Below are positions 7,389 through 48,060 of a DNA stretch of 64,000 bases, piece by piece. The notes beneath the pieces were generated by a model. The model saw only the letters and a list, made by a program, of their open reading frames with translations, was not told the DNA's origin and did no database searches. How positions within the stretch are numbered: the first letter of the stretch is position 1; each line of letters starts with the position of its first letter. The translations under genes were made by a program, and so were the position numbers. The stretch is taken from positions 110,138 through 174,137 of the forward strand of contig PEAK01000001.1 in assembly GCA_002753515.1 (NCBI GenBank), given 5' to 3'. This DNA comes from Magnetococcales bacterium. GTDB taxonomy: Bacteria; Pseudomonadota; Magnetococcia; Magnetococcales; UBA8363.

Positions 7389-7650
7389 GGTACAAATCTC
7401 CGCGCAGTGTGGAGGGGGGACTCGAAAGAGATCATCCCTTTGAAACCGTGAAGGATAGAGACACGAGACGGGAATTTCCAGTTTTTTGACCGATTCCCGT
7501 ATGAAAAGCTCATTTTGGGCCATTGATCGCGAGTTGACGGCAACCTTGGCATCCGGTAGCTTTCTTTCAGGTTTTCCAAGTGTCAAGGTTGCCGGGGCTT
7601 GCCGCAGGCGACTTTCTAAAGTATCCGGCTTTGAGTTGGTATGGGGATCG

Positions 7651-12356: not shown

Positions 12357-13683
12357 TGGTTTGACCGCACGCTTTATCGGTGTTCTCTTCCCCCTTCTCC
12401 TGCTCTGGGGGGGGGATGCACGGGCCTTGGAGGCTGAGGATTGGGTGTTGGATAACGGCTTGCGCGTTATCCTGGTCAACGAAGCCAAAGCCCCGGTGGT
12501 GGTGACCCAGGTGTGGTATCAGGTGGGGGGCATCGACGAAAAAGAAGGCAAAACCGGGCTGTCCCACATGCTGGAACACATGATGTTCCGCGGTACTCAG
12601 AACGTGCCAGCGGGTGAGTACAGCCGCATTATCGCCCGCAATGGCGGCGAGGACAATGCCTCCACATCCTGGGATTATACCGATTATTGGTCCAAGCTTT
12701 CTTCCGATCAACTGGATCTCGCCCTTAAACTGGAGGCGGATCGCATGCACAACCTGGTTTTAGACCCCGAAAAATTTCGTTCGGAAAACCTGGTGGTGCG
12801 TGAGGAGCGTCGCACCCGCTTTGAATCGAATCCCCAGGGACGTTTCTTTGAAAAATTCAAGCAACATCTCTTCCAGGATCATCCCTACGGTCGGTCCGTC
12901 ATCGGCTCGATGCGGGATATCGTAAACTATACGGTACAGGATCTGGAGGCTTGGTATCACACCCACTATACCCCGGATAATGCCGTTTTGCTGGTTGTCG
13001 GGGATGTGGATTTCGTTCGCGCCAGGGCATTGATCCAACGCTATTTCGGGGCGCTGCCATCGGGTGGCGTGAATAAAAGGGTACGGTTACCGAAGGATCA
13101 GAATGTGGTTGGGGGGCGTCGCCTGATGGAGCAGGACAAAGAGGCGATGGGATCGGTTTTGCATGTGGCCTGGTTGGTTCCATCCCTCACCTTTGGCCGT
13201 ACCGAGGACGTTTATCCTTTGGACGTATTGGCGGCAGTACTGGGTGGGGGGGGATCGGGCCGGTTGTATCGCCGAATTGTCGTGGAACAAAAAAAGGCGG
13301 TCTCGGTGCAGACGCAGTATGGGGGGACATCCTTGGGTCCGGAATCCTTTGAAATTTCTCTTGAGCCCCGTGATGGTCTGCCCGTGGCGGAATTGGAAGG
13401 GGCGGTTCTGTCGGAACTGGGTGCCATGATGGATGAAGTGGTCAGCGAATTGGAGTTGCAGCGGGCCAAGAATGGCCTATTGGCGGATCGGATTTATGCC
13501 ATGGATTCCGTTGACCATTTGGCTGGAATGATTGGCCGATTGGCGATCAACGGTCTCGATTGGCGGGCGGTTGTGGAACACTACCCGGAAAAGGTCCAGG
13601 AGGTGACCGGCTTGCAGATTCGTGATGTCATGCGGCGCTACCTGTCTCGGGAAAAAGCAGTTGTGGGGGTTTTAATGCCATGA
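12304..13683 (+). CDS. M16 (pitrilysin-family) zinc peptidase, active subunit
   Basis: HxxEH zinc motif (HMLEHMMFRG) plus the downstream E (ENASTS). Signal-like segment FIGVLFPLLLLWGGDARA. The start is uncertain: ATG 12304, ATG 12286 or TTG 12361. The 12127 start in the ORF track is very unlikely. Confidence 0.82.
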   Translation: MKKKICQVGWKRPSRCVDGLTARFIGVLFPLLLLWGGDARALEAEDWVLDNGLRVILVNEAKAPVVVTQVWYQVGGIDEKEGKTGLSHMLEHMMFRGTQNVPAGEYSRIIARNGGEDNASTSWDYTDYWSKLSSDQLDLALKLEADRMHNLVLDPEKFRSENLVVREERRTRFESNPQGRFFEKFKQHLFQDHPYGRSVIGSMRDIVNYTVQDLEAWYHTHYTPDNAVLLVVGDVDFVRARALIQRYFGALPSGGVNKRVRLPKDQNVVGGRRLMEQDKEAMGSVLHVAWLVPSLTFGRTEDVYPLDVLAAVLGGGGSGRLYRRIVVEQKKAVSVQTQYGGTSLGPESFEISLEPRDGLPVAELEGAVLSELGAMMDEVVSELELQRAKNGLLADRIYAMDSVDHLAGMIGRLAINGLDWRAVVEHYPEKVQEVTGLQIRDVMRRYLSREKAVVGVLMP

Positions 13684-34750: not shown

Positions 34751-35245
34751 ATGGTTATGTCCCGATTTGATCACAGCGAAGGGGAGACGGCGGCCTTTGT
34801 TACGGGCACATTCCTGGACCTGAAAGAATTTGATAGCATGGCTGAGAACGAAAAGGAGTCAGCCCGCGTTTTCATCAAGGAGACCGTTCACTCGCAGCTT
34901 TCCTGTGTTCGTCGTGGCATGTGGGAGCAACTGCAAGAATGGATTCCCGCACCTCTGCGTCGCATGGCGCAACGTCACATTCACCCCGTTGTCCCCGGTG
35001 TTTCCCACCAGGAATCTCCCTTGCCCGAAACGATTCGACATGAATTCGAGGTGCTTAACGAACTGGCGTGGCTATTAACCTGGAAACACAAGCGTGTCTC
35101 GTCGGACGTCTCGGAGGAAGAACGCCACATGACGGAAAAATTGGATGTCGAAAGGGTCCGCCGGATCAAGGAGACGATTTTCCCCTATTTGGAGGAGAAA
35201 ATGGCTCGTCTGGAAAAGGCGTCAACTCCCGGTGCGTCAACGTGA
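34751..35245 (+). CDS. Hypothetical soluble protein
   Basis: 164 aa. AAGGAG lies 9 nt upstream of ATG 34751, which is 23 nt after the OmpR-type gene. No TM segment or recognisable domain. Confidence 0.45.
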   Translation: MVMSRFDHSEGETAAFVTGTFLDLKEFDSMAENEKESARVFIKETVHSQLSCVRRGMWEQLQEWIPAPLRRMAQRHIHPVVPGVSHQESPLPETIRHEFEVLNELAWLLTWKHKRVSSDVSEEERHMTEKLDVERVRRIKETIFPYLEEKMARLEKASTPGAST

Positions 35246-35247
35246 TT

Positions 35248-35685
35248 TCATAGGTCCAACCACAGGGTGACGGGTCCGTCATTAATTAAATGTACCTGCA
35301 TGTCGGCACCAAAACGTCCTTCGGCAACCGTGAGTTTTTTTTGTCGCAATCCTTCACAAAAGGCGTTTACGGACGCTTCAGCTATGGACGGGGCGGCGGC
35401 GGCAAAAAACGATGGTCGGTTGCCTTTATGTAACTGCGCGGCCAATGTGAATTGCGATACGACCAGCACTGCTTTGCCCGTTTCCTGGACCGAACGGTTC
35501 ATTTTCCCTTCTGCGTCTGGGAAAATCCGTAAATCTGCAACCTTGTTGACCATTTTTCTGAGTTGTTCCTGAGTATCGTCTTGCATGATGGCCAAAAAGA
35601 CCAGGAGACCCTGGCCAATGCGTCCGGTCTCTTCGCCATCAATGTTGACCCATGCCTGTGTAACGCGTTGCACCAAAGCTCGCAT
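35248..35685 (-). CDS. dtd: D-aminoacyl-tRNA deacylase
   Basis: 145 aa. MRALVQRV..., SQFTLAA, and a NDGPVT C-terminal motif. Confidence 0.92.
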   Translation of the reverse strand: MRALVQRVTQAWVNIDGEETGRIGQGLLVFLAIMQDDTQEQLRKMVNKVADLRIFPDAEGKMNRSVQETGKAVLVVSQFTLAAQLHKGNRPSFFAAAAPSIAEASVNAFCEGLRQKKLTVAEGRFGADMQVHLINDGPVTLWLDL

Positions 35686-35817
35686 CCAAGCCCCTCCTTT
35701 ATGCAGTCGATGGCGGTGTGATTGACGACTGATATGTTATTATTGGTTCAATAATTGCAAAGACGCCTCCGTTTGGTGTAATCGTCATTGACCCAGTCCT
35801 GTCCTGAGAATTTTCCC

Positions 35818-38800
35818 ATGAAAAAAATGCTTCTAACTTTCGGAATTCTGACTCTCTGTTTTTCGATTGTCATGGGCTCAGATGCCTTGACTTTAAGTAA
35901 CTTATCCGGCCAATCACTTGCCAATATTAATGATCCAAAAACATTGAAAATGTTACAAGGTGCCAAACCCGGTCGCGTCAATCCCCAGGACTATCGCCAG
36001 GACAATCGGCGCAGGGATAAACCGGACACCGTCAAAAATCCAGAGGAAGTACCTGCAGAACTCTTGGAAACTCCAGAAAAAAAACCGGTACCGTTTTATG
36101 TTGAGACCTATCCGGAAGATTTGCCTATTTTCGGTCAGGATCTATTTGTTGACAAGTACAGAAATGCCCCAGTGAAAGACGTGACTGCCACGGTTCCAGG
36201 TGATTACGTCATTGGTCCGGGTGATACGTTTCGCCTGTTGTTTTCCGGCAAGGACTTTAAGGAAGTTGAGGTTGCCGTGGATGGTGAGGGGATGGTTTTT
36301 GTTCCCGATATGGGGATGATTCCCGTGACTGGCTTGCGGTTTAACGAATTTAAAACCTTGTTGGCCAGTCAAACCAAACAAAAATTGATTGGTTATGAAT
36401 TGACGCACGTTGCACTTTCTTCCCTACGTACCATGAGAATTTTCCTGCTCGGCAACGTAAAAAATCCGGGAACGCATCAAGTTCCCTCCCTGACATCCCT
36501 GATGCAATTGTTGATTGAAACAGGGGGCATTCTTCCCGTTGGTTCTTTGCGTAATGTACAGATCAAACGCAACGGTGTGCCCGATAAAACAGTCGATCTT
36601 TATAATGTTTTGTTGAGTGGTAAAGGAGATGGCGAGGTTCGCCTTCAGGATGGTGATACGGTGTTCGTGCCAATGATCGGCAATACCATCGCCTTGACCG
36701 GTACTGTCAAAAAACCGGCTATTTATGAAATCGCCAAGGAAGAAACGATTGCTGATATTGCCCAGCTTGCTGGAGGTTTGCTACCCAACGCCCAGTTTAT
36801 CAAAATAGAGCGTATTGATGATAATAAAAATCGTACCATCGTCGATCTACATTTAGCGAAAAAAGAGAGTTTGCGTACCGCTATCAGATCGGGTGATATC
36901 GTCCACGTTTTACCATCGTCCGACTCCAGAAAAGAGACGGTCACTTTGACGGGCTATATTGATCGCGGCGGGGTGTTCCAGTGGTATAAAGGGATGAGGT
37001 TGTCCGATATCATTCCCAGTCCCGATATTTTGTTGCCCCAGACCGACCTGTCGCACTACCTGGTCGTTCGCACCAATATGAAGAATCGTCAACTGGAACC
37101 TCTCTCAGCCAATCTGGAGCGTGCCCTGAGCGATCGGGCTTCGGCAGATAACATTCTTCTCCAACCCAATGATCAAATTCAATTGTTCAGCATCAGCGCC
37201 GATCATTCCAAAAATTTGCAGTCTGTTGTGGAAAAATTACGTAATCAGGGGAGATTCAACAATACCGACAAGCTCGTGTCCATTGAGGGTAATGTTCGTT
37301 TTCCAGGGGAATACCCTTACGTTCCCAATATGAGTTTGAAACAGTTGGTAATGGCTTCTGGGGATATTCGTTCCAATACCGATATGGACTATTGTCTGAT
37401 CGTCCGCTCCGATTATATGGGGCGCATCCAACCCTTTTCGGTGCGTTTGCGCGAAGTGTTTGGTATGGAAGGTGTTGCCAAGACCATAGCTCTGAAACCA
37501 AAAGATCAAGTTTTGGTTTTTACCCTTGATGAAAAACAAAAAACAAAAAACTCAGACAAAAATAATGAGAAGGGTGCCCCAGCGGAAGAACCGGAAGAGA
37601 GGAACGCAATTTTTTCCGGAACATCAAAAGAGAACGCTCGTAAGATTCCGGGACAAAATGTGCAGGGGTTAGACGTCGATCAATGGTCGATCGATGCCTT
37701 GAAGAAGGCCAAGGACAAAAAAGGGAATATCCAGGAACAGAACGAGGAGCGTGAGGAAGCGGATGGACAAAAACTACCCAAGCAACCAGGTGGCGCAAAA
37801 GGTGTTGATATTGCCCTGGAAAATGAAGAGATGGAAAATGTACTGGTTGGGTTCCTCCTGAAAAATTCCACCTCCGATCCCGTCGAAAACCGCAGCAATG
37901 AGGCCTATCGCAATCAATTGGTTGATCCAGCATTGCATGAGAATCAAAGTCGACTTTTGCAATTGCTGCTGAAAAAACGGGACCTGCGGCAAATGGTGCG
38001 AGAGGAGTTGCAACCCGTTAAAGAGAAACCGGTCAAATCGCGCCAGGCTTTGTTAAAACCCGTTTTGGAAAAATTGCAAGATCAGGCCACCAAAGAATTT
38101 CCAGCGCAGATCATTCAAATTGGTGGTGCGATACGCTATCCCGGCAAATATCCCCTGGAGCCTGGTATGCGTGTCAGCAACCTATTATTGGCTGGTGGGG
38201 GATTGGCAGAACCGGCTTATCATCTTGAAGCCGAAATCAACCATTTTGAGGTGGATGACAATCAATTCACCAGAATGCATCATGCCAGCGTCAACCTGTT
38301 CAAGATTACGCAGGGTGATCCCACCATGGACCAGGCGTTACGGCCCTATGATATAGTTATTGTTAAACAAAATCCAAAATGGGGCGACATTAATTCGGTG
38401 ATGCTGGAGGGCAATGTGCGCTTTCCCGGAATTTATCCGATTCAAGCTGGGGAAAGATTGACTCAGGTGTTAAAAAGGGCCGGTGGCCTTACAGAATTGG
38501 CTTATCCCGAGGCCGCTGTATTTACCAGAACAAAGCTTATTGAAAAAGAGAAGCGGGAGAACGACAGTCTGATCGCCCGCATGGAGACCCAATTGGTTCA
38601 GACCCAGTATATGAAGCAGACTGAGAAGGAATCGGATACCCTTAATCCCAACTCGGCCATGATCCACGAGCTTATTGCCAAACTTAAAACAGCAAAACCG
38701 ATAGGTCGATTGGCGATTGATCTGAACCAAGTCATGAGCAATCCCGGTGGGCAATACGATGTCATGCTTCAAGATGGTGACCATCTCATCATTCCGCAAC

Positions 38801-39162
38801 GGACTGATGAGGTCACTGTCATGGGCGAGGTTTATTTTCCCACTTCCCACCAATTCATTGGTGACAAGGATCTGGAAGCCTATATTCAGGCCAGTGGTGG
38901 CTATACCAGCAATGCAGATGATAGTCGGGTTTATGTCGTCCGGGCTGATGGCCGGGTGACATCGAAAAAACAACCCGGTAAATTTCCTGTTGTCGGCTGG
39001 TTTTCGTCCAGCAACGCCATTACCATCGGACCGGGGGATACCGTTGTTGTCCCCATGAATGTCGAAAAAGTGGCCCCCATGGTACTCTGGAAAGATATCA
39101 CCCAAATTTTGTATAATTTGGCTGTCACTTCCTCTGCTCTGAAGTCGGCTGGTGCCCTGTAA
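35818..39162 (+). CDS. Giant outer-membrane polysaccharide export (OPX/Wza-KpsD-like) protein with about 7 SLBB repeats
   Basis: ATG 35818 (MKKMLLTFGILTLCFSIVMGSDA signal peptide). Poly_export-like opening: GDYVIGPGDTFRLLFSGK...VAVDGEGMVFVPDMGMIPVTGL. It has repeated V.L.G.V..PG.Y modules, e.g. VSIEGNVRFPGEYP, IQIGGAIRYPGKYP, VMLEGNVRFPGIYP and VTVMGEVYFP. 1114 aa. Confidence 0.75.
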   Translation: MKKMLLTFGILTLCFSIVMGSDALTLSNLSGQSLANINDPKTLKMLQGAKPGRVNPQDYRQDNRRRDKPDTVKNPEEVPAELLETPEKKPVPFYVETYPEDLPIFGQDLFVDKYRNAPVKDVTATVPGDYVIGPGDTFRLLFSGKDFKEVEVAVDGEGMVFVPDMGMIPVTGLRFNEFKTLLASQTKQKLIGYELTHVALSSLRTMRIFLLGNVKNPGTHQVPSLTSLMQLLIETGGILPVGSLRNVQIKRNGVPDKTVDLYNVLLSGKGDGEVRLQDGDTVFVPMIGNTIALTGTVKKPAIYEIAKEETIADIAQLAGGLLPNAQFIKIERIDDNKNRTIVDLHLAKKESLRTAIRSGDIVHVLPSSDSRKETVTLTGYIDRGGVFQWYKGMRLSDIIPSPDILLPQTDLSHYLVVRTNMKNRQLEPLSANLERALSDRASADNILLQPNDQIQLFSISADHSKNLQSVVEKLRNQGRFNNTDKLVSIEGNVRFPGEYPYVPNMSLKQLVMASGDIRSNTDMDYCLIVRSDYMGRIQPFSVRLREVFGMEGVAKTIALKPKDQVLVFTLDEKQKTKNSDKNNEKGAPAEEPEERNAIFSGTSKENARKIPGQNVQGLDVDQWSIDALKKAKDKKGNIQEQNEEREEADGQKLPKQPGGAKGVDIALENEEMENVLVGFLLKNSTSDPVENRSNEAYRNQLVDPALHENQSRLLQLLLKKRDLRQMVREELQPVKEKPVKSRQALLKPVLEKLQDQATKEFPAQIIQIGGAIRYPGKYPLEPGMRVSNLLLAGGGLAEPAYHLEAEINHFEVDDNQFTRMHHASVNLFKITQGDPTMDQALRPYDIVIVKQNPKWGDINSVMLEGNVRFPGIYPIQAGERLTQVLKRAGGLTELAYPEAAVFTRTKLIEKEKRENDSLIARMETQLVQTQYMKQTEKESDTLNPNSAMIHELIAKLKTAKPIGRLAIDLNQVMSNPGGQYDVMLQDGDHLIIPQRTDEVTVMGEVYFPTSHQFIGDKDLEAYIQASGGYTSNADDSRVYVVRADGRVTSKKQPGKFPVVGWFSSSNAITIGPGDTVVVPMNVEKVAPMVLWKDITQILYNLAVTSSALKSAGAL

Positions 39163-39211
39163 CCGTGGGTGCGTCGTTTCTCTGGGCTCTCCTGCCGCCA
39201 AATCCTGGTAA

Positions 39212-39254
39212 CCCCGTTAAGCCTCTTTAGTTCCCTGTTCGGGGCTTAACGGGG
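39212..39254 (+). terminator. Hairpin downstream of the export gene (weak terminator candidate)
   Basis: 12-bp stem CCCCGTTAAGCC (39212-39223) / GGCTTAACGGGG (39243-39254), 50 nt after the stop. No clean U-tract follows. Confidence 0.4.
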
Positions 39255-39386
39255 AAGACCAGTTGATCCGTCAAAATATCGTTGTCCGAACGCACAAAAT
39301 CCCTCCAGTTGCGTATCCTGTTTGTGATACCATCTCCCTGAGATTCGTTAATAAGGTGGCCGTTCATCGTGAAATAGGATATTGCA

Positions 39387-41450
39387 ATGAAAAATTTGTG
39401 GTCGGAGGAAGCGGCGCAACAATGGGTAGATCAATACGCACCTCGTTGGGGTGAACCTCTGGCCCTGAGAACCTACTCAAGCAGACTGTTGGGCAGTCAT
39501 CCCGAATTGGTACTTCATGGCGGTGGCAATACCTCGGTCAAAGGGGATGTCACTGATATTTTTGGTCAAACCATAGCCGGTGTTTTTATCAAGGCTTCCG
39601 GGGTCAATCTGGCGCAAAGCTTGCCAACCGATCACCCGGCACTTAACCTGAATGCCTTGCAGAGGCTCACATTGTTGAACACTCTGTCGCCCTCTGCCAT
39701 GGTGAATCAATTACGTTTAAACCTGTTTGATTCGAGCGCTCCGACTCCTTCGATTGAAGCGTTACTGCATGCTTTTCTGCCCCCGATTTTCATTGATCAC
39801 ACCCACCCTGACGCTCTCCTGACACTGGGCAATCAACCGGACGGTCGTCAGCGCCTCAAAGATGCTTTGGGGGCCGAATGTATCATTCTGGACTATATCC
39901 ACCCTGGATTTGAATTGGCCAAAGCGGTTCTTGCCGCCTGGGAGGCCCAACCCAACGCCATTGGGATGGTTTTGCTGCATCATGGTCTGTTGACCTGGGG
40001 CGATTCGGTGCGGAAATCCTATGAAGCGACGTTGACGCTGGTGAATCGTGCCGAACAAGCCATTAACGCCGTTGCCAAAAAAGTTTTGCCGGTTCCAACA
40101 CCGGCAGCCCCCTGGTGGGAATTGGCTCCTGTCCTTCGCGGTGCCTTGGCCGAACATGATGAAGATTCTGATCGTTCGTACAAGCGTTTCATCGTACGTT
40201 CTTTGGATGATTCGGAAACATTGAGTTTGTTGCACCAACCGGATGCCGCTAAGCTTTTTGTCAGTGCCCCATTGACATCGGACCATCTGATTCGTTGTAA
40301 GCCATGGCCATTGTGGATTGATAATCCCGGGGAAATCAGGGAGGCGGTACAACGTTACCGAGAAGACTACCGCAATTATTTCCAGCGCCATGCCGCATCG
40401 TTGGAAGGTTCGGTGCAGCCATTGGATTCATCGCCCCGGGTGGTATTGATTCCTGGTGTTGGTGGGTTCGTTGCGGGGGAAAGTGCCCATTTGGCCGATG
40501 TCGCCCGGGACATTACCCGACAAACCCTCAGGGTCAAAACCGATATCGCCCGCATGGGGAGTTATTGCGGTCTTGAGGAACAACACCTGTTTGCCATGGA
40601 ATATTTTTCGTTGCAGCATGCCAAGCTTGTCCGCCACGTAACTTCAGGACTTCAGGGGTGCGTGGCCATCGTGACCGGGGCTGCCGGGGCGATTGGTTCC
40701 GGGATTTGTCGCAGGTTGCTCCAGGAAGGGGCGCATGTTGCCGCAACCGATTTACCGGGGGATGCCCTGGACACTCTGGTGCAGGGGCTTGCCGAGGGGG
40801 CGCCCGGTCGCATCATGGGCGTGGCCATGGATGTGACGGATGAAGACTCAGTGACCCAAGGGATCCAAAAAATTGTCCAAACGTGGGGGGGAATCGATTG
40901 TGTGATTATCAATGCGGGACTCGCCCATGTGGCTCCTCTCGCATCCTTGGGATTGGAAACATTTCGTAAGCTGTATCGCGTCAATGTCGAAGGAACCTTG
41001 TTGTTGTTATCGCATATGGCCAGGCTGTTTGAACGGCAGCGAACCGGGGGGGATGTCGTGGTGATCTCGACAAAAAATGTTTTTGCCCCGGGAGCCAGCT
41101 TTGGCGCTTACAGCGCCACCAAGGCGGCATCGCACCAACTGGCTCGCATTGCGTCTCTGGAACTGGCTCCCCTGGATGTTCGGGTCAACATGGTGGCCCC
41201 GGATGCCGTCTTTTCGGATGGTGCCCGTAAATCGGGGCTGTGGGCTGAAGTCGGTCCCGACCGGATGCGCGCCCGCGGTCTGGATGAAGCGGGGTTGGAA
41301 AATTATTATCGCAATCGTAATCTTTTGAAAGCCCGGGTGACTGCTGACCATGTTGCCAATGCGGTGCTGTTTTTTGTGACCCGGAAAACCCCCACGACGG
41401 GTGCGACCATCCCGGTGGATGGGGGGTTGCCCGATGCCACGCCACGATAA
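39387..41450 (+). CDS. Bifunctional class II aldolase / short-chain dehydrogenase (rhamnulose-1-phosphate-aldolase/SDR type)
   Basis: 687 aa. N-terminus: RTYSSRLLGSHPELVLHGGGNTSVK (aldolase-II-like). C-terminal SDR: VAIVTGAAGAIGSGICRRL (TGxxxGxG), NAG, YSATKAA (YxxxK). Confidence 0.8.
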   Translation: MKNLWSEEAAQQWVDQYAPRWGEPLALRTYSSRLLGSHPELVLHGGGNTSVKGDVTDIFGQTIAGVFIKASGVNLAQSLPTDHPALNLNALQRLTLLNTLSPSAMVNQLRLNLFDSSAPTPSIEALLHAFLPPIFIDHTHPDALLTLGNQPDGRQRLKDALGAECIILDYIHPGFELAKAVLAAWEAQPNAIGMVLLHHGLLTWGDSVRKSYEATLTLVNRAEQAINAVAKKVLPVPTPAAPWWELAPVLRGALAEHDEDSDRSYKRFIVRSLDDSETLSLLHQPDAAKLFVSAPLTSDHLIRCKPWPLWIDNPGEIREAVQRYREDYRNYFQRHAASLEGSVQPLDSSPRVVLIPGVGGFVAGESAHLADVARDITRQTLRVKTDIARMGSYCGLEEQHLFAMEYFSLQHAKLVRHVTSGLQGCVAIVTGAAGAIGSGICRRLLQEGAHVAATDLPGDALDTLVQGLAEGAPGRIMGVAMDVTDEDSVTQGIQKIVQTWGGIDCVIINAGLAHVAPLASLGLETFRKLYRVNVEGTLLLLSHMARLFERQRTGGDVVVISTKNVFAPGASFGAYSATKAASHQLARIASLELAPLDVRVNMVAPDAVFSDGARKSGLWAEVGPDRMRARGLDEAGLENYYRNRNLLKARVTADHVANAVLFFVTRKTPTTGATIPVDGGLPDATPR

Positions 41451-41465
41451 CGGCATTTTGCTCAA

Positions 41466-44400
41466 ATGTTTTCGCCCCGTCGCGACAAAATCAGATTATT
41501 GGATGAAGAATTGTTTCACAATCTGACCTCGTTTTCCGAACTTGAGGCCAGAATTTTCAGTTTGGATGATCCTGAACGGCGGAAAAGTGCTTTTGCCATG
41601 TTTGCCGAAGGTTATTTGGCCTTGCGTTCCATGCCAAGGAGCGCGGAAATATTGCCAACCCATCGGTTGCATGAAAATCATTATCATAACCTCTGCATTC
41701 CCAAGACCTTGACCGGGGTTGATGGGCTTTTGTTCATGGCCGAGAGTGGTTGTCATCCCTACCATCTCCTGTTGCATGATCCACGATCGGAAGTGTCTGC
41801 GGAAACAATGGCCCCGTTTGCGCGTCTTTTGGAGCAAAGCCATTGGCCCCTGCTGTTTACCAATCTGCGCCAACTTCCCATGCAATGGTTGGAACGTGAA
41901 GGTTTCCAACACATTTCCGGAAACCAACTGGATGGATTAACCATTTCATGGTTTTCCTATTTTTTGCGTTGGTTGCAAAGTGGTACGCCATCCCGGCGCC
42001 CCACCTTGCCATCCGAACCCATGGGCGAAATGATGCAACGCGTTCGCGCAATGGCCCCGGGTGTGGCCACGGTAACCTTACCGGATGGACCCATTCAGGA
42101 TGAGTGGTTGTTTCACTTGGCGGTGAGCCCTGGACCCAAACGAATGACCTTGATCTTGACCCCGGGGGCGGGCCGCATCCTCGATCTGTTGCACCACTGG
42201 CGCAGACTGACGCCTCCAGTCCCATTATCATGCCTTTGGGTTGTTTCGGGAAAGGAATGGGATAAAAGTGAAAATCTTCTTCCCGGGGAGTTGGATTTTC
42301 TTCGGGTCCAGGATGTTGCAGGCATCCGTCACTTTTTGACCAGTCGTGACGGCAATCCCAGGATTCTCTGGGCGACTTTTGCCGCTATTCCCATGTTGAA
42401 AAAGGCACAATTGGGATTATCCCCCTTTGAGCTGACAGTGGTACTCGACAGTCATGTGCTGGCCCAACAGAGCAAATTGTATGAAACACTTTTGGCGCAG
42501 GAATTTCCCGTATCGCGGTTGCGCCTGCATGTGACCTCATTGCCACGCTGCACGACCCCATTTAAAAAAAATCGCCAGGAGCAGCCCGTTACCCTGTTCG
42601 CCATGGAAGACGATCAGCGGTTTGGTATTCCCGTTCGCTTCAGCATTGCGCCGAAACTCCGCGAATCCTTTGCGGGACGGGATTGGAAATTGGTTGTGGT
42701 ACCTGTCCAAAGCGACATGTTGCATCATCCAGAAACCTGTGTGGTCCATGCCTTGTCGCGTTCTCTCACAATTCATCCCAACATCCATCATGTTCATATT
42801 CCGTTGGAATGGAATGTTTCCGATACGGTTTCGGTTTCGGGCATTGGGGAGTTCGTTACGAGAACCAGTAATACAGCATGGGATGTCCTGACCTGGTCGA
42901 AAGAGGTGCGCCATTTTTCCCGGTTGGATCGGGCACTCCTGCGTATTGCTTCAATTCCTGGCCATGTTCGCCATCTGGCAACGTGCGATTTGGCTTTGTT
43001 ATCGTTTGATCCCGGTCAGGTCACTGCCTCGATTTACGAACGTCTGAGCGCCATCATGCGTCCCCATGCGGAGACAAGAACGGGGATTGCCGCTTCCTTG
43101 GTGGTGATTGATCCCATGTTTGCAGATGCCGAATCTTCCATGCGTCCCGACCTCGCTGCCCTTTGTCTGGTGGTGCAAGCGTTGCGTGACATGGATCCCG
43201 AGTTTGATCAGGCATTTTTTGAGGCGCGCCGGCATCGAGGTCGTACCGGTTCGTTCAACCTGGAACCCTTGCGGCGTTGGTTGCACGTTGCCGACCCCGG
43301 CACCAATGACGGTGCGAACACATTATTGGAATGGTTGTTAACCACCCTGACTTCTCCATGGGATCACTATTTGGGAGAACTCATGCGCTTCCATGAACAA
43401 TGGGGTTCTGCCGAGGTTGCGGAAGCGGGGGATGAGCATTCCCAACTTGCGGCTTGGGTGGAAGTGCAACGCCGGGCGCGGGTCAAAGGCTGGCTGACTC
43501 GGGAACACATCACGCAACTGGATGCGTTGGGATTTGTCTGGGATCCGAAAAAATTGGCCTGGGAACGCATGCTGGCGGCGTTGAAAATCTTTCAGGCTCG
43601 TCATCGGCATTGCAATGTCCCTGATCCCTATCCCGAAGTGGATACGTTGCCCTTGTGGGTCAAGCAACAGCGCCGGGATCTCCTTCAGGGACGCTTGCTC
43701 CCAGCTCAGATGGAACAATTGGATGCCCTGGGATTCATTTGGGATCTGGAGGCCTGGGAATGGGAACAGTGTTATACCCGATTGCTCCGATTGAAACCTG
43801 TGACCGACCCTGCCAGGATCACCGTGCCATGTCACCAGGATCCTGAGTTGGGGGAATGGGCTGATCGTCAGCGTCAGTTATGGCAAAAACAACGTTTGGA
43901 TGAAAGTCGACGCCAGCGCCTGGAGGCCGTTGGTTTTGTTTGGGATCTGGAGGCGACCGAATGGCAAGAGCGATTTCAACAATTCCGGATGATCGTGGTA
44001 ACGTTGGGTCGATGGCCGGGCATTGATCATCCGCTTTTGGATGAATTGCGTTCATGGCTGGAAGAGCAGCGACAATTAAGGGCTAAAAATCGCTTGCATC
44101 CCACCCGTTGTAATCGACTCAATGCATTGGGTTTCATCTGGTCAACACGACAAGAACAGTGGCAACGGTTTTTTGATCGCTTTGTCTCTTTCAAACGGCT
44201 CCACGGCCATGGCCTCGTTCCTGAGCGGTATTCCGAGGATCCGGAGCTCTCTTCCTGGGTCCAGGATCAACGGAGGGACTATCGGCGTGGGGTCATGGTG
44301 GAAGAGATCCATGCTCGATTGGCCATGGTGGGCTTCGTTTTTGATCCACAAGCCTATCATTGGGACAGGATGCTGGCTCTCTTTGAACGTTACCAACGTC

Positions 44401-45569
44401 ACCACGGTGATGATGATCCCGTGGCTGTGAATCCGCAGTTCGCCCCACTGAAAGATTGGATGGCCAGTCAACGGCGCATGCAGATGTCGGGTCGATTGCC
44501 GGAAATAGAGAGGGACAAACTGACCCGGTTGGGTTTTGTTTGGGATCCAGCGGCCAAACAGGAACAAACAATGCTCCGCGCCTTGCGCCGGTTCATGGAA
44601 CAATACGGTCATTGTAACATTCCTGCCGATTTCAACCACCCCCCCACCTTGTCGAGCTGGGTCCGAAAACTGCGGACCCGCAGGATAACGGGCGGATTGT
44701 CCCAGGAATTGATGGACCATCTTGACCGGATGGGGTTCATCTGGGACGCAGGGGAGGCCGAATGGCAGGAAATGTTCCATGCCCTGAAGCAATTCAATCA
44801 GGAACGCCTCCATTGTATTGTCCCCGATCCCTACCCGGTTCATCCCAGACTGCCGGCTTGGGTCAAAAATATTCGTAAAATTTATAAAAACAATGCCTTG
44901 GATAAGAAAAAAACGGAAAGCCTCAACCAATTGGAGTTCGTTTGGGACGAAAAGGCCGTTTTTTGGGAGGAAATGTTTGTCGCCCTGGCGGCGTATCACG
45001 ATCGATTTGGACACAGTTTGGTGCCGGAAAATGATAGCCAACATGCGCGATTGGCCTGGTGGGTTGCGGCGCAGCGTAAGGCCAGGATCGGTGGGCAGTT
45101 GGATGAAAAACAAATCCAACGCTTGGATCGGCTCCATTTCGTCTGGGACATCCATAGTGCCCAATGGTTGGAAATGTACCGGGAATTGTTCTTTTTCCAC
45201 CAACGTCACGGCCATTGCCTGATCAAAAATGATTCCCCACATCACACCCGCTTGAATGATTGGTGTGCCATTCAGCGCAAGGCCAGAATGATGGGAAATC
45301 TTTCCGAGGAAAAACAGGCACGTCTCAACACTTTGGGGTTCATTTGGGATGCCAGGGAGATGGTCGCGGCCGAAATGCTGATGTACCTGGAACAGTATAA
45401 GGAACGTTTTGGTCATTGTAATGTTCCGGCACAGTGGCCAGAAAATCCTCAATTGGGATTATGGCTACAGTTCCAGCGCCAGTCCTTTCAGAAAGGTCAA
45501 CTGGATCCGGAACGGCGGACCAAATTGGAAGAGATGGGAATCCTTTGGGATGAAGGAGATAAACGGTGA
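41466..45569 (+). CDS. Helicase-shaped protein lacking a P-loop, with 11 C-terminal HA (helicase-associated domain) repeats
   Basis: 1367-aa intact ORF starting 15 nt after the aldolase/SDR stop. The N-terminus resembles an Mrr-like module. Motif-I/II/III-like strings are degenerate (TPGAGRI, VVLDSH, VTSLPR). There is no GK[ST] anywhere in the protein. The C-terminal 736 aa are HA-type repeats. Confidence 0.7.
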   Translation: MFSPRRDKIRLLDEELFHNLTSFSELEARIFSLDDPERRKSAFAMFAEGYLALRSMPRSAEILPTHRLHENHYHNLCIPKTLTGVDGLLFMAESGCHPYHLLLHDPRSEVSAETMAPFARLLEQSHWPLLFTNLRQLPMQWLEREGFQHISGNQLDGLTISWFSYFLRWLQSGTPSRRPTLPSEPMGEMMQRVRAMAPGVATVTLPDGPIQDEWLFHLAVSPGPKRMTLILTPGAGRILDLLHHWRRLTPPVPLSCLWVVSGKEWDKSENLLPGELDFLRVQDVAGIRHFLTSRDGNPRILWATFAAIPMLKKAQLGLSPFELTVVLDSHVLAQQSKLYETLLAQEFPVSRLRLHVTSLPRCTTPFKKNRQEQPVTLFAMEDDQRFGIPVRFSIAPKLRESFAGRDWKLVVVPVQSDMLHHPETCVVHALSRSLTIHPNIHHVHIPLEWNVSDTVSVSGIGEFVTRTSNTAWDVLTWSKEVRHFSRLDRALLRIASIPGHVRHLATCDLALLSFDPGQVTASIYERLSAIMRPHAETRTGIAASLVVIDPMFADAESSMRPDLAALCLVVQALRDMDPEFDQAFFEARRHRGRTGSFNLEPLRRWLHVADPGTNDGANTLLEWLLTTLTSPWDHYLGELMRFHEQWGSAEVAEAGDEHSQLAAWVEVQRRARVKGWLTREHITQLDALGFVWDPKKLAWERMLAALKIFQARHRHCNVPDPYPEVDTLPLWVKQQRRDLLQGRLLPAQMEQLDALGFIWDLEAWEWEQCYTRLLRLKPVTDPARITVPCHQDPELGEWADRQRQLWQKQRLDESRRQRLEAVGFVWDLEATEWQERFQQFRMIVVTLGRWPGIDHPLLDELRSWLEEQRQLRAKNRLHPTRCNRLNALGFIWSTRQEQWQRFFDRFVSFKRLHGHGLVPERYSEDPELSSWVQDQRRDYRRGVMVEEIHARLAMVGFVFDPQAYHWDRMLALFERYQRHHGDDDPVAVNPQFAPLKDWMASQRRMQMSGRLPEIERDKLTRLGFVWDPAAKQEQTMLRALRRFMEQYGHCNIPADFNHPPTLSSWVRKLRTRRITGGLSQELMDHLDRMGFIWDAGEAEWQEMFHALKQFNQERLHCIVPDPYPVHPRLPAWVKNIRKIYKNNALDKKKTESLNQLEFVWDEKAVFWEEMFVALAAYHDRFGHSLVPENDSQHARLAWWVAAQRKARIGGQLDEKQIQRLDRLHFVWDIHSAQWLEMYRELFFFHQRHGHCLIKNDSPHHTRLNDWCAIQRKARMMGNLSEEKQARLNTLGFIWDAREMVAAEMLMYLEQYKERFGHCNVPAQWPENPQLGLWLQFQRQSFQKGQLDPERRTKLEEMGILWDEGDKR
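43359..45566 (+). repeat. Tandem array of 11 diverged ~66-aa (~200-bp) HA-domain coding repeats
   Basis: Each unit follows W..(M/F)...L..(F/Y)....GH..VP.......L..WV..QR.....G.L.......L..LGF.W. Examples: WERMLAALKIFQARHRHCNVP...LPLWVKQQRRDLLQGRL...LDALGFIWD, and the last unit FGHCNVP...LGLWLQFQRQSFQKGQL...LEEMGILWD. Confidence 0.8.
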
Positions 45570-46606
45570 AACAGGTGGAACCAATCTGTGGCCGGGTAAC
45601 TGATCAGACCACAATAATCTCGATGATTCTTCATGCGTGTGATGAAACCCAACAAATTCGTCTGCACATGGATCAACAATTCTTAGAATATATAACCCAT
45701 TTTAAAACTGGCCCTGAACCAGATAAATTTTTATATCTCTATATCGGTGGTTTGGTGCCACCGGTCGGTAATATTAAAATTCGTAAAAGCCATGTTATTG
45801 AAATAACTTTCCAGACTAATACTCGCGTTGTGGAAACCAAGGTGCGCTTCCTGCGAGCTGTGACCAACGAGTTGTTTCGTTTATCCTTTCCCAAGTATGT
45901 GAAAATAATGGCGCAAAAACGTTCAGCAATCCGGGTTGCGCCCGTGGCCGCCATGAAAATTTCACTTGGTATCATTCGGCCCGATGGATTGGAATTGCCT
46001 GCCCAAATAGTCGATATCAGTGCCGAAGGTTTGTCATTCCTCTTTGAGAAATCAGAGTACTACCTCCCCAAGGAAGCATCCATTCAGATCGTGCTATCAT
46101 GGGGGGGTGGATGCCATCACACAATAGTGGATGCCCAGGTTGTTGGTCATGTGACGCGGGATTTGGTGGAAGGACATCGTGCCAAATTTGTTTTCTCTAC
46201 AGTCGAGCAATCCATGCGGATCGGGGAATTGGTTGCCAGTATTCAATGCGATATCCTGCAACACCGCGTCCAGGTATCCAGTGAGGAAAAGATCAAAACC
46301 TGGGAGGTGAAACCATTGGCAAAAGTGGATATTCCGACATCAAGCCTTGAGGATTGGCATGATCGATATTACAGCCAATGGATGGATAAGTCTTATTTTG
46401 TCGCATGGACTGGAAACATCCTGGGTATGTGCGCGGGGTTCTTGATTGCCTTGAATCTTTATATTCATTGGGCGTATCCCCTTTTAATCGTGGCCTCATT
46501 GGTGATGGGAGTGGGATTATCAGCGCGTCATCGCTCGCTTCCCCTATTGCTTATTGGTTTCATCCTGTTATTAGGCGTCATTGGAACCTTGCGTGTGTGG
46601 TGGTAA
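45566..46606 (+). CDS. PilZ-domain protein with about 3 C-terminal transmembrane helices
   Basis: GTG 45566 overlaps the upstream stop (GTGA) and is preceded by AAGGAG at a 7-nt spacing. PilZ motifs: RSAIR (45920-45934) and DISAEG (46013-46030). C-terminal TM segments: ILGMCAGFLIALNLYIHW, LLIVASLVMGVGL, LLLIGFILLLGVIGTL. Confidence 0.75.
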   Translation: MKQVEPICGRVTDQTTIISMILHACDETQQIRLHMDQQFLEYITHFKTGPEPDKFLYLYIGGLVPPVGNIKIRKSHVIEITFQTNTRVVETKVRFLRAVTNELFRLSFPKYVKIMAQKRSAIRVAPVAAMKISLGIIRPDGLELPAQIVDISAEGLSFLFEKSEYYLPKEASIQIVLSWGGGCHHTIVDAQVVGHVTRDLVEGHRAKFVFSTVEQSMRIGELVASIQCDILQHRVQVSSEEKIKTWEVKPLAKVDIPTSSLEDWHDRYYSQWMDKSYFVAWTGNILGMCAGFLIALNLYIHWAYPLLIVASLVMGVGLSARHRSLPLLLIGFILLLGVIGTLRVWW

Positions 46607-46740
46607 TCCGTGCTGCTCACAGGATGCGAATTGCAACATGTTTGTATCTTTGGTTGGCTCGTCATCAGTGGTATGATTCGGCCCATGGAATCGTTTGATT
46701 GATCCTGCCTTGTTGACCCTTACTGCTGACGGAGAGTCGG

Positions 46741-47487
46741 ATGACCCAGAAACATGTTCTTGTTACCGGTGGTATTGGTGGTATTGGTACCGCTATCGTC
46801 AAATATTTTGCACGGGATGGCTACAAAACCGCCGCAACCTATGCCCCCTTTGAAAGGGAAAAAGTCAAACCATGGCTGGAGATGATTGAAAAGGAGGTGT
46901 TGGAAGTCCATTTGTTTGAAGTGGATGTTGCCGATTTTGAATCCTGTCACGCCCTGTCCCACAAGGTGGCGGCAGAATTTGGCGCTGTGGATGTATTGGT
47001 CAATTGCGCCGGTATCATCCGCGATTCGGTGTTCAAAAAAATGCCCTTCGAAAACTGGGATCAGGTGATGAAAGTTAACCTGTATAGCATTTTTAACGTG
47101 ACTCGGCATTTCTTTGAAGCCATGCTGATTCGCAAATGGGGACGGGTGATCAACATCACCTCAGTCAATGGTCAAAAGGGTCAGTTTGGCCAAGCCAACT
47201 ATTCGGCAACCAAAGCGGGTGCCCACGGTCTGACCATGGCTTTGGCACAGGAAGGGGCCAAACATGGTGTTACCGTCAACTCCGTCGCTCCGGGGTATAC
47301 AGCTACGGAAATGATGCTTCAGGTCCCCGAGGCTGTTTTGGACGATATCAAAAAACATATTCCAATGGGTCGATTGGCCAAGCCTGAGGAAATTGCCGCC
47401 GCAGTGTTGTTCCTGGCTTCTGAAGATGCCGCATTCATAACCGGTGTGAATCTGGATGTTAACGGCGGTCAGTGGATGCACCATTGA
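46741..47487 (+). CDS. phaB: Acetoacetyl-CoA reductase
   Basis: 248 aa, collinear with Cupriavidus PhaB by eye: VTGGIGGIGTAI, VLVNCAGIIRDSVFKKM, INITSVNGQKGQFGQANYSATKAGAHGLTMALAQE, VNSVAPGY. Confidence 0.88.
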   Translation: MTQKHVLVTGGIGGIGTAIVKYFARDGYKTAATYAPFEREKVKPWLEMIEKEVLEVHLFEVDVADFESCHALSHKVAAEFGAVDVLVNCAGIIRDSVFKKMPFENWDQVMKVNLYSIFNVTRHFFEAMLIRKWGRVINITSVNGQKGQFGQANYSATKAGAHGLTMALAQEGAKHGVTVNSVAPGYTATEMMLQVPEAVLDDIKKHIPMGRLAKPEEIAAAVLFLASEDAAFITGVNLDVNGGQWMHH

Positions 47488-47548
47488 TCGTTCAGTTGAT
47501 GGAAGGTTTTTTGTTCGACCGGGAGCATCCCAGCGCCTCAAAAACAAA

Positions 47549-47578
47549 CAAGCCCTGGATTAACAAATCCAGGGCTTG
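47549..47578 (-). terminator. Intrinsic terminator of the atp operon
   Basis: 13-bp stem CAAGCCCTGGATT / AATCCAGGGCTTG with a 4-nt loop. On the minus strand it is followed by TTTGTTTTTG. It lies 62 nt after the atpC stop and is shared with the convergent phaB. Confidence 0.78.
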
Positions 47579-47640
47579 CTGGGTGCAAAATCACGCTAAT
47601 GAGGCATACTGCCGTCCATGAAGGACGGAGCCGGCGAAAA

Positions 47641-48060
47641 CTACAGTCTCTTCAATAGTTTTGAAATCGATGCAATCTGTTCGGCCATGGCAGCGAATTC
47701 GCCTTGAGCCCGTGCAAAGTTGATATCGCTCTTAACATTGACCACGGCTTCCTGGGCTTCTCGCCTTGCATCCGCAGCCATGGCAGCATCCAGGTCAGCG
47801 GCACGAACTATGGAATCGGCCAACACAGTAACAGCATTGGGATGGATCTCAAGGATACCCCCCGCAACGTAGAAAATCTCTTCTGGGCCAACATTTTCCA
47901 CCTTGATGCGTACCGTGCCGGGTTTAATGCGCGTGATCAACGGTGCATGTTTGGGATAAATGCCAAGTTGCCCCACATCCCCAGACAAGATTAAATATTC
48001 AGCCTTGCCGGAAAATATGGATTCCTCAGCACTGACGACATAGACTTGCATGGAGCTCAT
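47641..48060 (-). CDS. atpC: F1 ATP synthase epsilon subunit
   Basis: Start trimmed to ATG 48060. [18 protein letters not shown]...[12 protein letters not shown] aligns with E. coli AtpC MAMTYHLDVVSAEQQMFSG...LGIYPGHAPLLT. Confidence 0.9.

Follow-up and report, generated by a model that had tools for sequence, protein, structure and literature searches.

A four-gene block in a Magnetococcales genome appears to comprise three separate units, one of them a conserved aldolase/SDR-HA gene pair

The 64,000-nt stretch of DNA studied here, called the window below, belongs to the chromosome of a Magnetococcales bacterium known as a metagenome-assembled genome (MAG). Between positions 35818 and 46606, it carries four genes encoding an OPX protein, a bifunctional class II aldolase/short-chain dehydrogenase (aldolase/SDR; NCBI entry MBF0433765.1), a protein with HA repeats (HA protein; MBF0433764.1), and a PilZ-domain membrane protein (PilZ-TM). 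The original prediction had presented these genes as a candidate for a single undescribed module. The coordinates, the spacing, and the location of all four open reading frames (ORFs) on the + strand were confirmed, as were the four domain assignments, by ORF positions, Pfam and NCBIfam scans, and motifs. We conclude with moderate confidence that the block is real without being one module, and that three separate units lie side by side in a housekeeping region. In the reading that we favor, the conserved entity would be a two-gene operon running from the aldolase/SDR gene to the HA gene, the OPX and PilZ-TM genes being local add-ons. The OPX and aldolase/SDR genes are separated by 224 nt and the aldolase/SDR and HA genes by 15 nt, and the HA and PilZ-TM genes overlap by 4 nt (GTGA). 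The four genes are as follows.

35818..39162, + strand: OPX protein, 1114 aa, with a signal-peptide-like N-terminus; Poly_export 46.8 bits, SLBB 128 bits (5 stretches), SLBB_2 81 bits
39387..41450, + strand: bifunctional class II aldolase/short-chain dehydrogenase, 687 aa; Aldolase_II and adh_short; first gene of the conserved pair
41466-45569, + strand: HA protein (residues ~1-1367); 11 HA stretches, 446.6 bits (Pfam PF03457); first ~630 aa without a Pfam match
45566..46606, + strand: PilZ-domain membrane protein, 346 aa; PilZ at ~117-214, hydrophobic C-terminus at ~278-346

The pair emerged from a comparison of genomic contexts. A search of 1.84 billion representatives with residues 1 to 650 of the HA protein returned 218 relatives, and contexts were fetched for those lacking the catalytic motifs (the dead clade, described below); a search with a 3-sequence dead-clade alignment reached 4 loci, and one locus, L016, was reached in reverse, from a Magnetococcales aldolase/SDR. 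Counting the window and L001 as one lineage, and L008 and L016 as another, we obtained 10 lineages on 11 distinct contigs. In 8 of these 10 lineages, the aldolase/SDR gene directly precedes the dead HA gene in the same orientation, at a distance of -4 to +96 nt, distributed over the loci as follows.

Window and L001: 15 nt
L003: -4 nt
L004: 36 nt
L005: 15 nt
L006/7: 83 nt
L008: 96 nt
L011: 21 nt
L012: 24 nt
L016: 20 nt

The flanks of the pair differ, with 7 contexts among the 8 lineages.

Context 1: dtd and OPX on the 5' side, phaB on the 3' side
Context 2: MFS on the 5' side, phaB and rpe on the 3' side
Context 3: NUDIX on the 5' side, nucleotidyltransferase and cytochrome genes on the 3' side
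Context 4: response regulator-histidine kinase and LsrF-type genes on the 5' side
Context 5: two T2SSE genes on the 5' side, holC and leuA on the 3' side
Context 6: MCP and LsrF-type genes on the 5' side
Context 7: LsrF-type gene on the 5' side, M20 peptidase gene on the 3' side

All four genes of the block were found together in only one other genome, the sister MAG GCA_015228975.1 (L001/L002), which shares 94.6% nucleotide identity with the window over 21 kb. Its synteny is uninformative because the two genomes are too close, the ATP-synthase operon and dtd being syntenic there too. The aldolase/SDR-HA-PilZ-TM trio likewise recurs in this MAG only, so that the proposed four-gene or trio module failed on synteny in other genomes, the check that had been set for it beforehand. 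What stood of the claim of an undescribed conserved linkage is thus the aldolase/SDR-HA pair, while the OPX and PilZ-TM genes dropped out of it; we found no paper describing either this pair or the dead clade.

The HA protein combines three parts.

41466..41975, + strand, residues 1-170: degenerate Mrr-like PD-(D/E)xK domain, with GVDG kept and the QVK triplet changed to HLL
41976..43358, + strand, residues ~171-631: SF2 helicase-like ATPase, dead, with homology to the translocase module of Type ISP enzymes
43359..45569, + strand, residues ~632-1367: 11 position-specific HA repeats at a strict 67-aa period, forming a net neutral array

The consensus of 40 family members contains an Mrr-like PD-(D/E)xK nuclease (GxDG...YQVKFR), an active SF2 ATPase (MACGTGKT, FDEAHKTAG, TATPRHY, CLTEGVDVPAVD, and GRAMRK), and HA repeats. 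All of these nuclease and ATPase motifs are lost in the window protein and in its ten nearest relatives. The 40-sequence alignment shows DGPIQ in place of Walker A GTGKT, LDSH in place of DEAH, TSLPR in place of TATPR, and SAIMRP in place of GRAMRK, the aligned stretches of the window protein including LPDGPIQDEW, VLDSH, and YERLSAIMRP. Aligned with the active relatives, the protein thus retains none of Walker A, DEAH, motif III, and motif VI, and the label "dead helicase" given to it earlier was well chosen. Pfam domains were detected in many of the 40 family members (ResIII/DEAD in 29, Helicase_C in 32, and Mrr_cat_2 in 13), and the window protein matched none of these three. The dead clade was monophyletic in a quick neighbor-joining tree computed without support values, and every named member came from Magnetococcales; all nuclease and ATPase motifs have been lost in this one clade, which is apparently confined to the order.

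In Type ISP restriction enzymes, one polypeptide chain combines the Mrr nuclease and the SF2 ATPase with a coupler, a methyltransferase, and a recognition domain (PMC4666363). A search of PDB sequences with the N-terminus of the window protein alone gave no match, and only profiles reached LlaGI and LlaBIII: the family profile matched LlaBIII (4XQK, residues 13-660) with an E value of 1.8e-94 and LlaGI (5FFJ) with an E value of 3.7e-85, and also the HA nuclear magnetic resonance (NMR) structure 2KTA, while a profile of dead-clade N-termini only still matched LlaGI and LlaBIII at ~2e-26 over profile positions 198-592. Active relatives scored 283 to 293 bits on the N-terminal ~650 positions of the PADLOC model REase_MTase_IIG. 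By homology, these matches tie the HA protein to the portion of Type ISP enzymes that comprises the Mrr nuclease and the SF2 ATPase; its HA array takes the place of the methylase/recognition part. Like LlaGI and LlaBIII, it is a single polypeptide whose N-terminal ~600 aa are homologous to the Mrr nuclease and the SF2 ATPase and are followed by a C-terminal module. Unlike them, it retains neither the nuclease QxK nor any of ATPase motifs I, II, III, and VI, and its C-terminal 736 aa consist of HA repeats only, eleven in number, with neither a methyltransferase nor a target-recognition domain. Furthermore, Type ISP genes reside on plasmids or in defense islands, whereas the HA gene is chromosomal, seemingly vertically inherited, and linked to a metabolic gene; a tblastn search of plasmids with the HA N-terminus returned no match.

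The nearest active counterparts are helicases of Mrr_cat_2-ResIII/DEAD-Helicase_C-HA composition (annotated as "helicase associated domain proteins"; e.g., P0012 and P0013), which are homologous to the window protein (E values down to 1e-32) and share its architecture and its 67-aa array. Unlike the window protein, they keep MACGTGKT, FDEAHKTAG, TATPRHY, and GRAMRK, and their arrays are basic: the net charge of the array per 100 aa had a median of 0 in the dead clade (n = 11) versus +3.7 in active relatives (n = 24; Mann-Whitney P = 2.7e-4, uncorrected for phylogeny). The single active HA-helicase locus examined, L013, had no aldolase/SDR neighbor. HA-repeat arrays are common in Streptomyces and in some eukaryotic microbes.

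Despite the loss of its catalytic motifs, the HA gene is under purifying selection and is not decaying. Its ratio of nonsynonymous to synonymous substitutions (dN/dS) relative to L001 was 0.135, intact ORFs of 1284 to 1442 aa were present in all 11 distinct dead-clade contigs, and 27 columns were invariant across 8 dead-clade N-terminal regions. The L005 protein, which is 52% identical to the window protein in the N-terminal region and 56% overall, has one repeat more, and the repeats of the two proteins were orthologous one to one, with 46 to 79% identity in register and 22 to 48% off register.

The first gene of the pair encodes what is, judged by its sequence, an enzyme with intact catalytic motifs belonging to a widespread subfamily of the RhaEW superfamily different from RhaEW itself. 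The motifs PSIE..H, HTH138, HHG, TGAAGAIG, NAG509, and YSATK575 are all kept; we take these to represent the Zn-ligand histidines and the catalytic Glu (acid-base) of the aldolase and the NAD motif, NAG, and YxxxK of the SDR. RhaEW (YuxG) is a bifunctional L-rhamnulose-1-phosphate aldolase/L-lactaldehyde dehydrogenase of catabolic type, and its orthologs are always located in rha loci with rhaA, rhaB, or a transporter gene (PMC3870299). The window enzyme resembles RhaEW as a two-domain class II aldolase-SDR fusion with conserved catalytic residues. Unlike RhaEW, it passes the NF006194 equivalog (848 bits, cutoff 686) and fails the RhaEW model TIGR02632 (428.3 bits, cutoff 567.75), and no rhamnose genes were found in the window or at any related locus examined.

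This enzyme has more than 7,500 strong homologs and is 55 to 59% identical to proteins of Armatimonadota, Acidobacteriota, and Latescibacterota. A DeoC-family gene, sometimes accompanied by Rpe, lies directly 5' of the aldolase/SDR gene in Latescibacterota, Armatimonadota, and three Magnetococcales loci; the two proteins scored, from L006 and L014, reached 491 to 498 bits on the LsrF-type thiolase equivalog NF006081. The loci that carry a DeoC-family gene with the aldolase/SDR gene are as follows.

L014: 6017-9109
L015: 5375-9109
L006: 4911-7917
L011: 4990-7979
L012: 4637-7976

The comparison thereby exposed a widespread pair, LsrF-type thiolase plus aldolase/SDR, across several phyla, for which we found no description in the literature. 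Because the aldolase/SDR is intact, has so many homologs, has relatives in other phyla, and neighbors an LsrF-type thiolase gene, we regard it as an old, ordinary metabolic gene, to which, by this comparison, the HA gene would have become attached within Magnetococcales. We also considered a Magnetococcales-specific docking insert in the enzyme and rejected it, the sole difference being a 9-aa deletion in the interdomain linker (after residue 314), common to all 11 Magnetococcales aldolase/SDRs compared with 11 homologs from other or unassigned taxa.

The OPX gene probably forms an independent, monocistronic unit outside the conserved pair. Its ortholog adjoins the pair only in L001/L002 and in L005, where the housekeeping flanks (dtd and the response regulator) are shared as well. 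The 224-nt gap on its 3' side contains the following structure.

39205..39262, + strand: strong hairpin between the OPX and aldolase/SDR genes, inner 14-bp stem at 39212-39254, no U-tract after it

This hairpin had been described as weak; it proved to have a predicted energy of -33.6 kcal/mol, with a z score of -4.7 versus shuffled sequences. The stem is preserved in L001 (3626-3706) through a compensatory G>U/C>A change, and the corresponding place in L005 (~7600-7650) holds a canonical intrinsic terminator. The hairpin probably serves to end or process the transcript and so sets the OPX gene apart from the next operon, and we see the OPX gene as a stand-alone unit because of this strong hairpin and of the canonical terminator in L005.

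The OPX protein itself shares with Wza-type proteins a Poly_export domain, more than one SLBB domain, and a signal sequence at the N-terminus. It differs from Wza in being roughly three times as long and in carrying a long, charged, low-complexity insert between SLBB domains, at 37500-38100 (residues ~570-760). The original prediction also held that none of the usual OPX partners are present, and this extends to the whole window: in contrast to Wza-type systems, no Wzc/PCP, Wzx/Wzy (flippase or polymerase), ABC-transporter, or glycosyltransferase domain was found among the 30 other large ORFs scanned in the 64 kb. The gene starts at ATG 35818, with an in-frame TTG upstream at 35788, and its dN/dS relative to L001 was 0.08. 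The OPX gene of the sister MAG was annotated 42 codons short by the gene caller and is actually the same 1114-aa ORF.

At the other end of the block, the sequence comparison indicates that PilZ-TM is a recent, lineage-specific addition to the 3' end of the pair, restricted to this species-level lineage. Among 5.8 billion sequences, it had one other cluster, an 80%-identical allele in sister MAGs. It was absent from all 8 other Magnetococcales lineages with the HA gene and from all loci outside the window and L001, and it gave no match in a metagenome scan, in plasmids by tblastn, or in a PDB sequence search. The 134 nt on its 3' side align with the spacer between the HA gene and phaB in L004 and L005, including the conserved TGGTATGAT; PilZ-TM has therefore been inserted 3' of the HA stop codon, ahead of the phaB leader. 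The two features concerned are as follows.

46669..46677, + strand: extended -10 like element TGGTATGAT, a putative promoter, 5' of the acetoacetyl-CoA reductase gene and kept in L004 and L005
46741..47487, + strand: acetoacetyl-CoA reductase (PhaB-type SDR), 248 aa; TIGR01829 345 bits versus a cutoff of 302

As the element is kept in L004 and L005, where phaB directly follows the HA gene, it would mark a separate transcription unit. The phaB gene is not directly 3' of the HA gene in L003, L006/7, L008 to L012, and L016, and it is a housekeeping neighbor outside the conserved pair; the reductase showed 99% amino acid identity and a dN/dS of 0.019 relative to L001.

PilZ-TM also stands out as an island of divergence (45566-46606 in the window, 10001-11041 in L001) between MAGs that are otherwise ~95% identical, most 60-nt bins within the ORF showing 70 to 88% nucleotide identity, versus 92 to 100% outside it. 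Positive selection was considered and rejected, as PilZ-TM had a dN/dS of 0.19, indicating that it is not under diversifying selection, and the surplus divergence was also synonymous (dS of 0.57 versus 0.12 to 0.25 in the neighboring genes). Since the excess is also synonymous, it suggests a different allele history, e.g., an allele swapped by recombination. The protein carries RSAIR (RxxxR) at residues 119-123 and DISAEG (DxSxxG) at 150-155, ~27 residues apart, and since these binding motifs are present, it is probably a cyclic di-GMP (c-di-GMP) receptor. Like PilZ c-di-GMP receptors, it has RxxxR and D/NxSxxG at canonical spacing; unlike them, it scored below the Pfam gathering threshold on PF07238 (19.1 bits versus 22.5), has an uncharacterized N-terminal part of ~115 aa and a hydrophobic C-terminal anchor, and is known from two clusters only. 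Its 80%-identical allele, P0002, has a precomputed PF07238 match. The GTG start is the one used by NCBI, and P0001, a protein of a Magnetococcales MAG, is 100% identical. At 45552-45559, 6 nt 5' of this GTG, lies the Shine-Dalgarno sequence GAAGGAGA.

Given the 15-nt gap, the 4-nt overlap with its Shine-Dalgarno sequence, and a promoter/terminator scan that returned no convincing + strand terminator (and a site count not above that of shuffled sequence), the aldolase/SDR, HA, and PilZ-TM genes of this genome probably form one transcript. In L003 (MAG C5_bin.1), the place taken by PilZ-TM in the window is occupied by a gene for a 193-aa Polbeta/MNT-like nucleotidyltransferase (12587-13168), which also overlaps the HA stop codon by 4 nt.

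We propose that the OPX gene would be a stand-alone transcription unit ended by the strong hairpin, that the aldolase/SDR and HA genes would form a co-transcribed and often translationally coupled two-gene operon, and that PilZ-TM would be a third unit, inserted 3' of the HA stop codon and 5' of the phaB promoter and translationally coupled to the HA gene, so that in this lineage a probable c-di-GMP receptor would ride on the transcript of the pair. The HA protein would have been exapted as a noncatalytic product made together with the enzyme. As the two genes appear to be co-transcribed and often translationally coupled, it most likely acts noncatalytically alongside the enzyme, as a binding partner, a scaffold, or a regulator. 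A bolder version of this scheme, which we consider quite unlikely, is that a restriction-enzyme chassis was domesticated in a Magnetococcales ancestor into an inert subunit or regulator of a central sugar-phosphate aldolase/dehydrogenase, the 3' end of the HA gene serving as a dock for lineage-specific, coupled output genes (PilZ-TM here, the nucleotidyltransferase elsewhere).

Several points weigh against this scheme. The aldolase/SDR neighbor was missing at the dead-clade loci L009 and L010, i.e., in 2 of the 10 lineages, and the linkage is therefore not obligatory. The sample of 10 lineages and 11 contigs was picked through one protein search, and every genome in it is either a MAG or a metagenome contig. 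The operon structure and the partnership between enzyme and HA protein were read from spacing and synteny, the monophyly of the dead clade from a tree lacking support values, and the charge difference from sequences treated as independent of their phylogeny. The absence of PilZ-TM elsewhere was established by a word-indexed search and pattern scans, which miss remote homologs. AlphaFold gave no structural confirmation for the HA N-terminus (single sequence, pLDDT 37), and its model of PilZ-TM, built from 2 sequences, was of low confidence (pLDDT 39), with beta-strands predicted at ~131-209.

The main alternative to a partner or scaffold role is sequence-specific nucleic-acid binding by the HA repeats. 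The HA protein would then be a sequence-specific DNA/RNA-binding regulator or a nucleoid protein, sharing nothing with the enzyme but a promoter, a possibility that we regard as unlikely without dismissing it. The HA domain reportedly binds DNA, as the title of an NMR study by Mills in 2013 has it (listed in PMC12191111), and the repeats are individually conserved, as in a code-bearing array. In the active relatives, moreover, the array stands in the place of the Type ISP DNA-recognition module (PMC4666363). Against this, the dead-clade arrays have lost their net positive charge, and the adjacency has outlasted at least 7 flank rearrangements, suggesting that more than a borrowed promoter has been selected for. 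That the HA gene might instead be a decaying, functionless relic of a restriction-like gene, adjacent to the enzyme gene by accident, would fit the loss of every catalytic motif, the long branches of the dead clade relative to active relatives, and the drop of HA N-terminal identity to ~27% within the order, where the enzyme stays at ~58%. We give this idea hardly any credence, since it is at odds with the intact ORFs in 11 of 11 distinct contigs, the low dN/dS between close relatives, the preserved 67-aa register and repeat-by-repeat orthology, and the invariant N-terminal columns.

Two further readings came with the original prediction. According to one, updated here with the present findings, the block is a conflict (defense) system, with the HA protein as sensor or scaffold and the 3' gene as a swappable effector (PilZ-TM here, the nucleotidyltransferase in L003). 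The descent of the HA protein from a Type ISP-like restriction family agrees with this, as do the two different small genes that overlap the HA stop by 4 nt in two lineages and the divergence island at PilZ-TM. However, PADLOC (PADLOC-DB 2.0) gave no match for six proteins encoded in the block and its flanks, nor for the dead-clade protein P0003; P0008 gave only weak residual matches of 37.8 and 23.4 bits, and the REase_MTase models were matched only by active relatives from other genomes. Every catalytic motif of the HA protein is dead, the surroundings are housekeeping genes (dtd, hemCD, ATP synthase, and phaB) with no mobile or defense genes, and the HA gene seems to have been passed on vertically throughout the order and is linked to a metabolic enzyme, whereas defense systems are patchy. 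No overlapping third gene was present in 7 of the 9 contigs outside the window lineage, L011 having an unassigned gene at 288 nt on the 3' side, and the dN/dS of PilZ-TM is low. The absence of PADLOC matches in the block, the housekeeping context, and the order-wide metabolic linkage thus contradict this reading, which we consider very unlikely, with the twist that the HA protein is indeed of restriction-enzyme-like descent. The other reading, a c-di-GMP-gated accessory system for surface-polysaccharide secretion, would have PilZ-TM sense c-di-GMP and control the orphan OPX protein, while the aldolase/SDR supplies or modifies the sugar. It can draw on the binding motifs and membrane anchor of PilZ-TM, on a genuine OPX protein lacking neighboring partners, on a GGDEF-EAL protein encoded in the window, and on the shared strand of the four genes, but it found no comparative support and strikes us as highly improbable. 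OPX and PilZ-TM occur together only in the two near-identical MAGs; L005 has OPX without PilZ-TM, and both are missing from L003, L004, L006, L008, L011, L012, and L016. The OPX gene is parted from the remainder by a strong hairpin or a terminator. The aldolase/SDR family is of catabolic type, as in RhaEW (PMC3870299), and its neighbors in other phyla are the LsrF-type thiolase and Rpe, not polysaccharide genes. Nothing ties PilZ-TM to the OPX protein.

A dead protein tied to one metabolic gene across an order of magnetotactic bacteria offers a concrete, testable case of exaptation, and a handle on the function of HA-repeat arrays. Defense enzymes rarely leave fully inactivated descendants that are retained through hundreds of millions of years of divergence, and such proteins are poorly understood; were the domestication of the restriction-enzyme chassis true, the case would be one of exaptation from immunity to metabolism. 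The locus also teaches that a compact same-strand block may be a mosaic of units with different histories.

The block is set in a housekeeping region of the chromosome. The 5' flank comprises tsaD, nhaA, hemC, hemD, a gene for an Hpt protein, a gene for an OmpR-type regulator, and dtd, and the 3' flank comprises the acetoacetyl-CoA reductase gene followed by the ATP-synthase operon; scans of the window ORFs found no mobile or defense genes in the neighborhood of the block. An Rfam scan of positions 35000-47700 found no riboswitch and no small RNA, and the hairpin behind the OPX gene matched no Rfam family. Between the convergent phaB and atpC genes, a hairpin with a 15-bp stem (47547-47580) is likely a bidirectional terminator. 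A response-regulator-PAS-GGDEF-EAL protein, predicted to function in c-di-GMP turnover, is encoded at 1270-3927, ~32 kb 5' of the block. Between the OmpR-type regulator gene and dtd lies a 164-aa ORF (34751-35245) without a Pfam or NCBIfam match, whose counterpart in L005 (3168-3644) occupies the same position with 67% amino acid identity.

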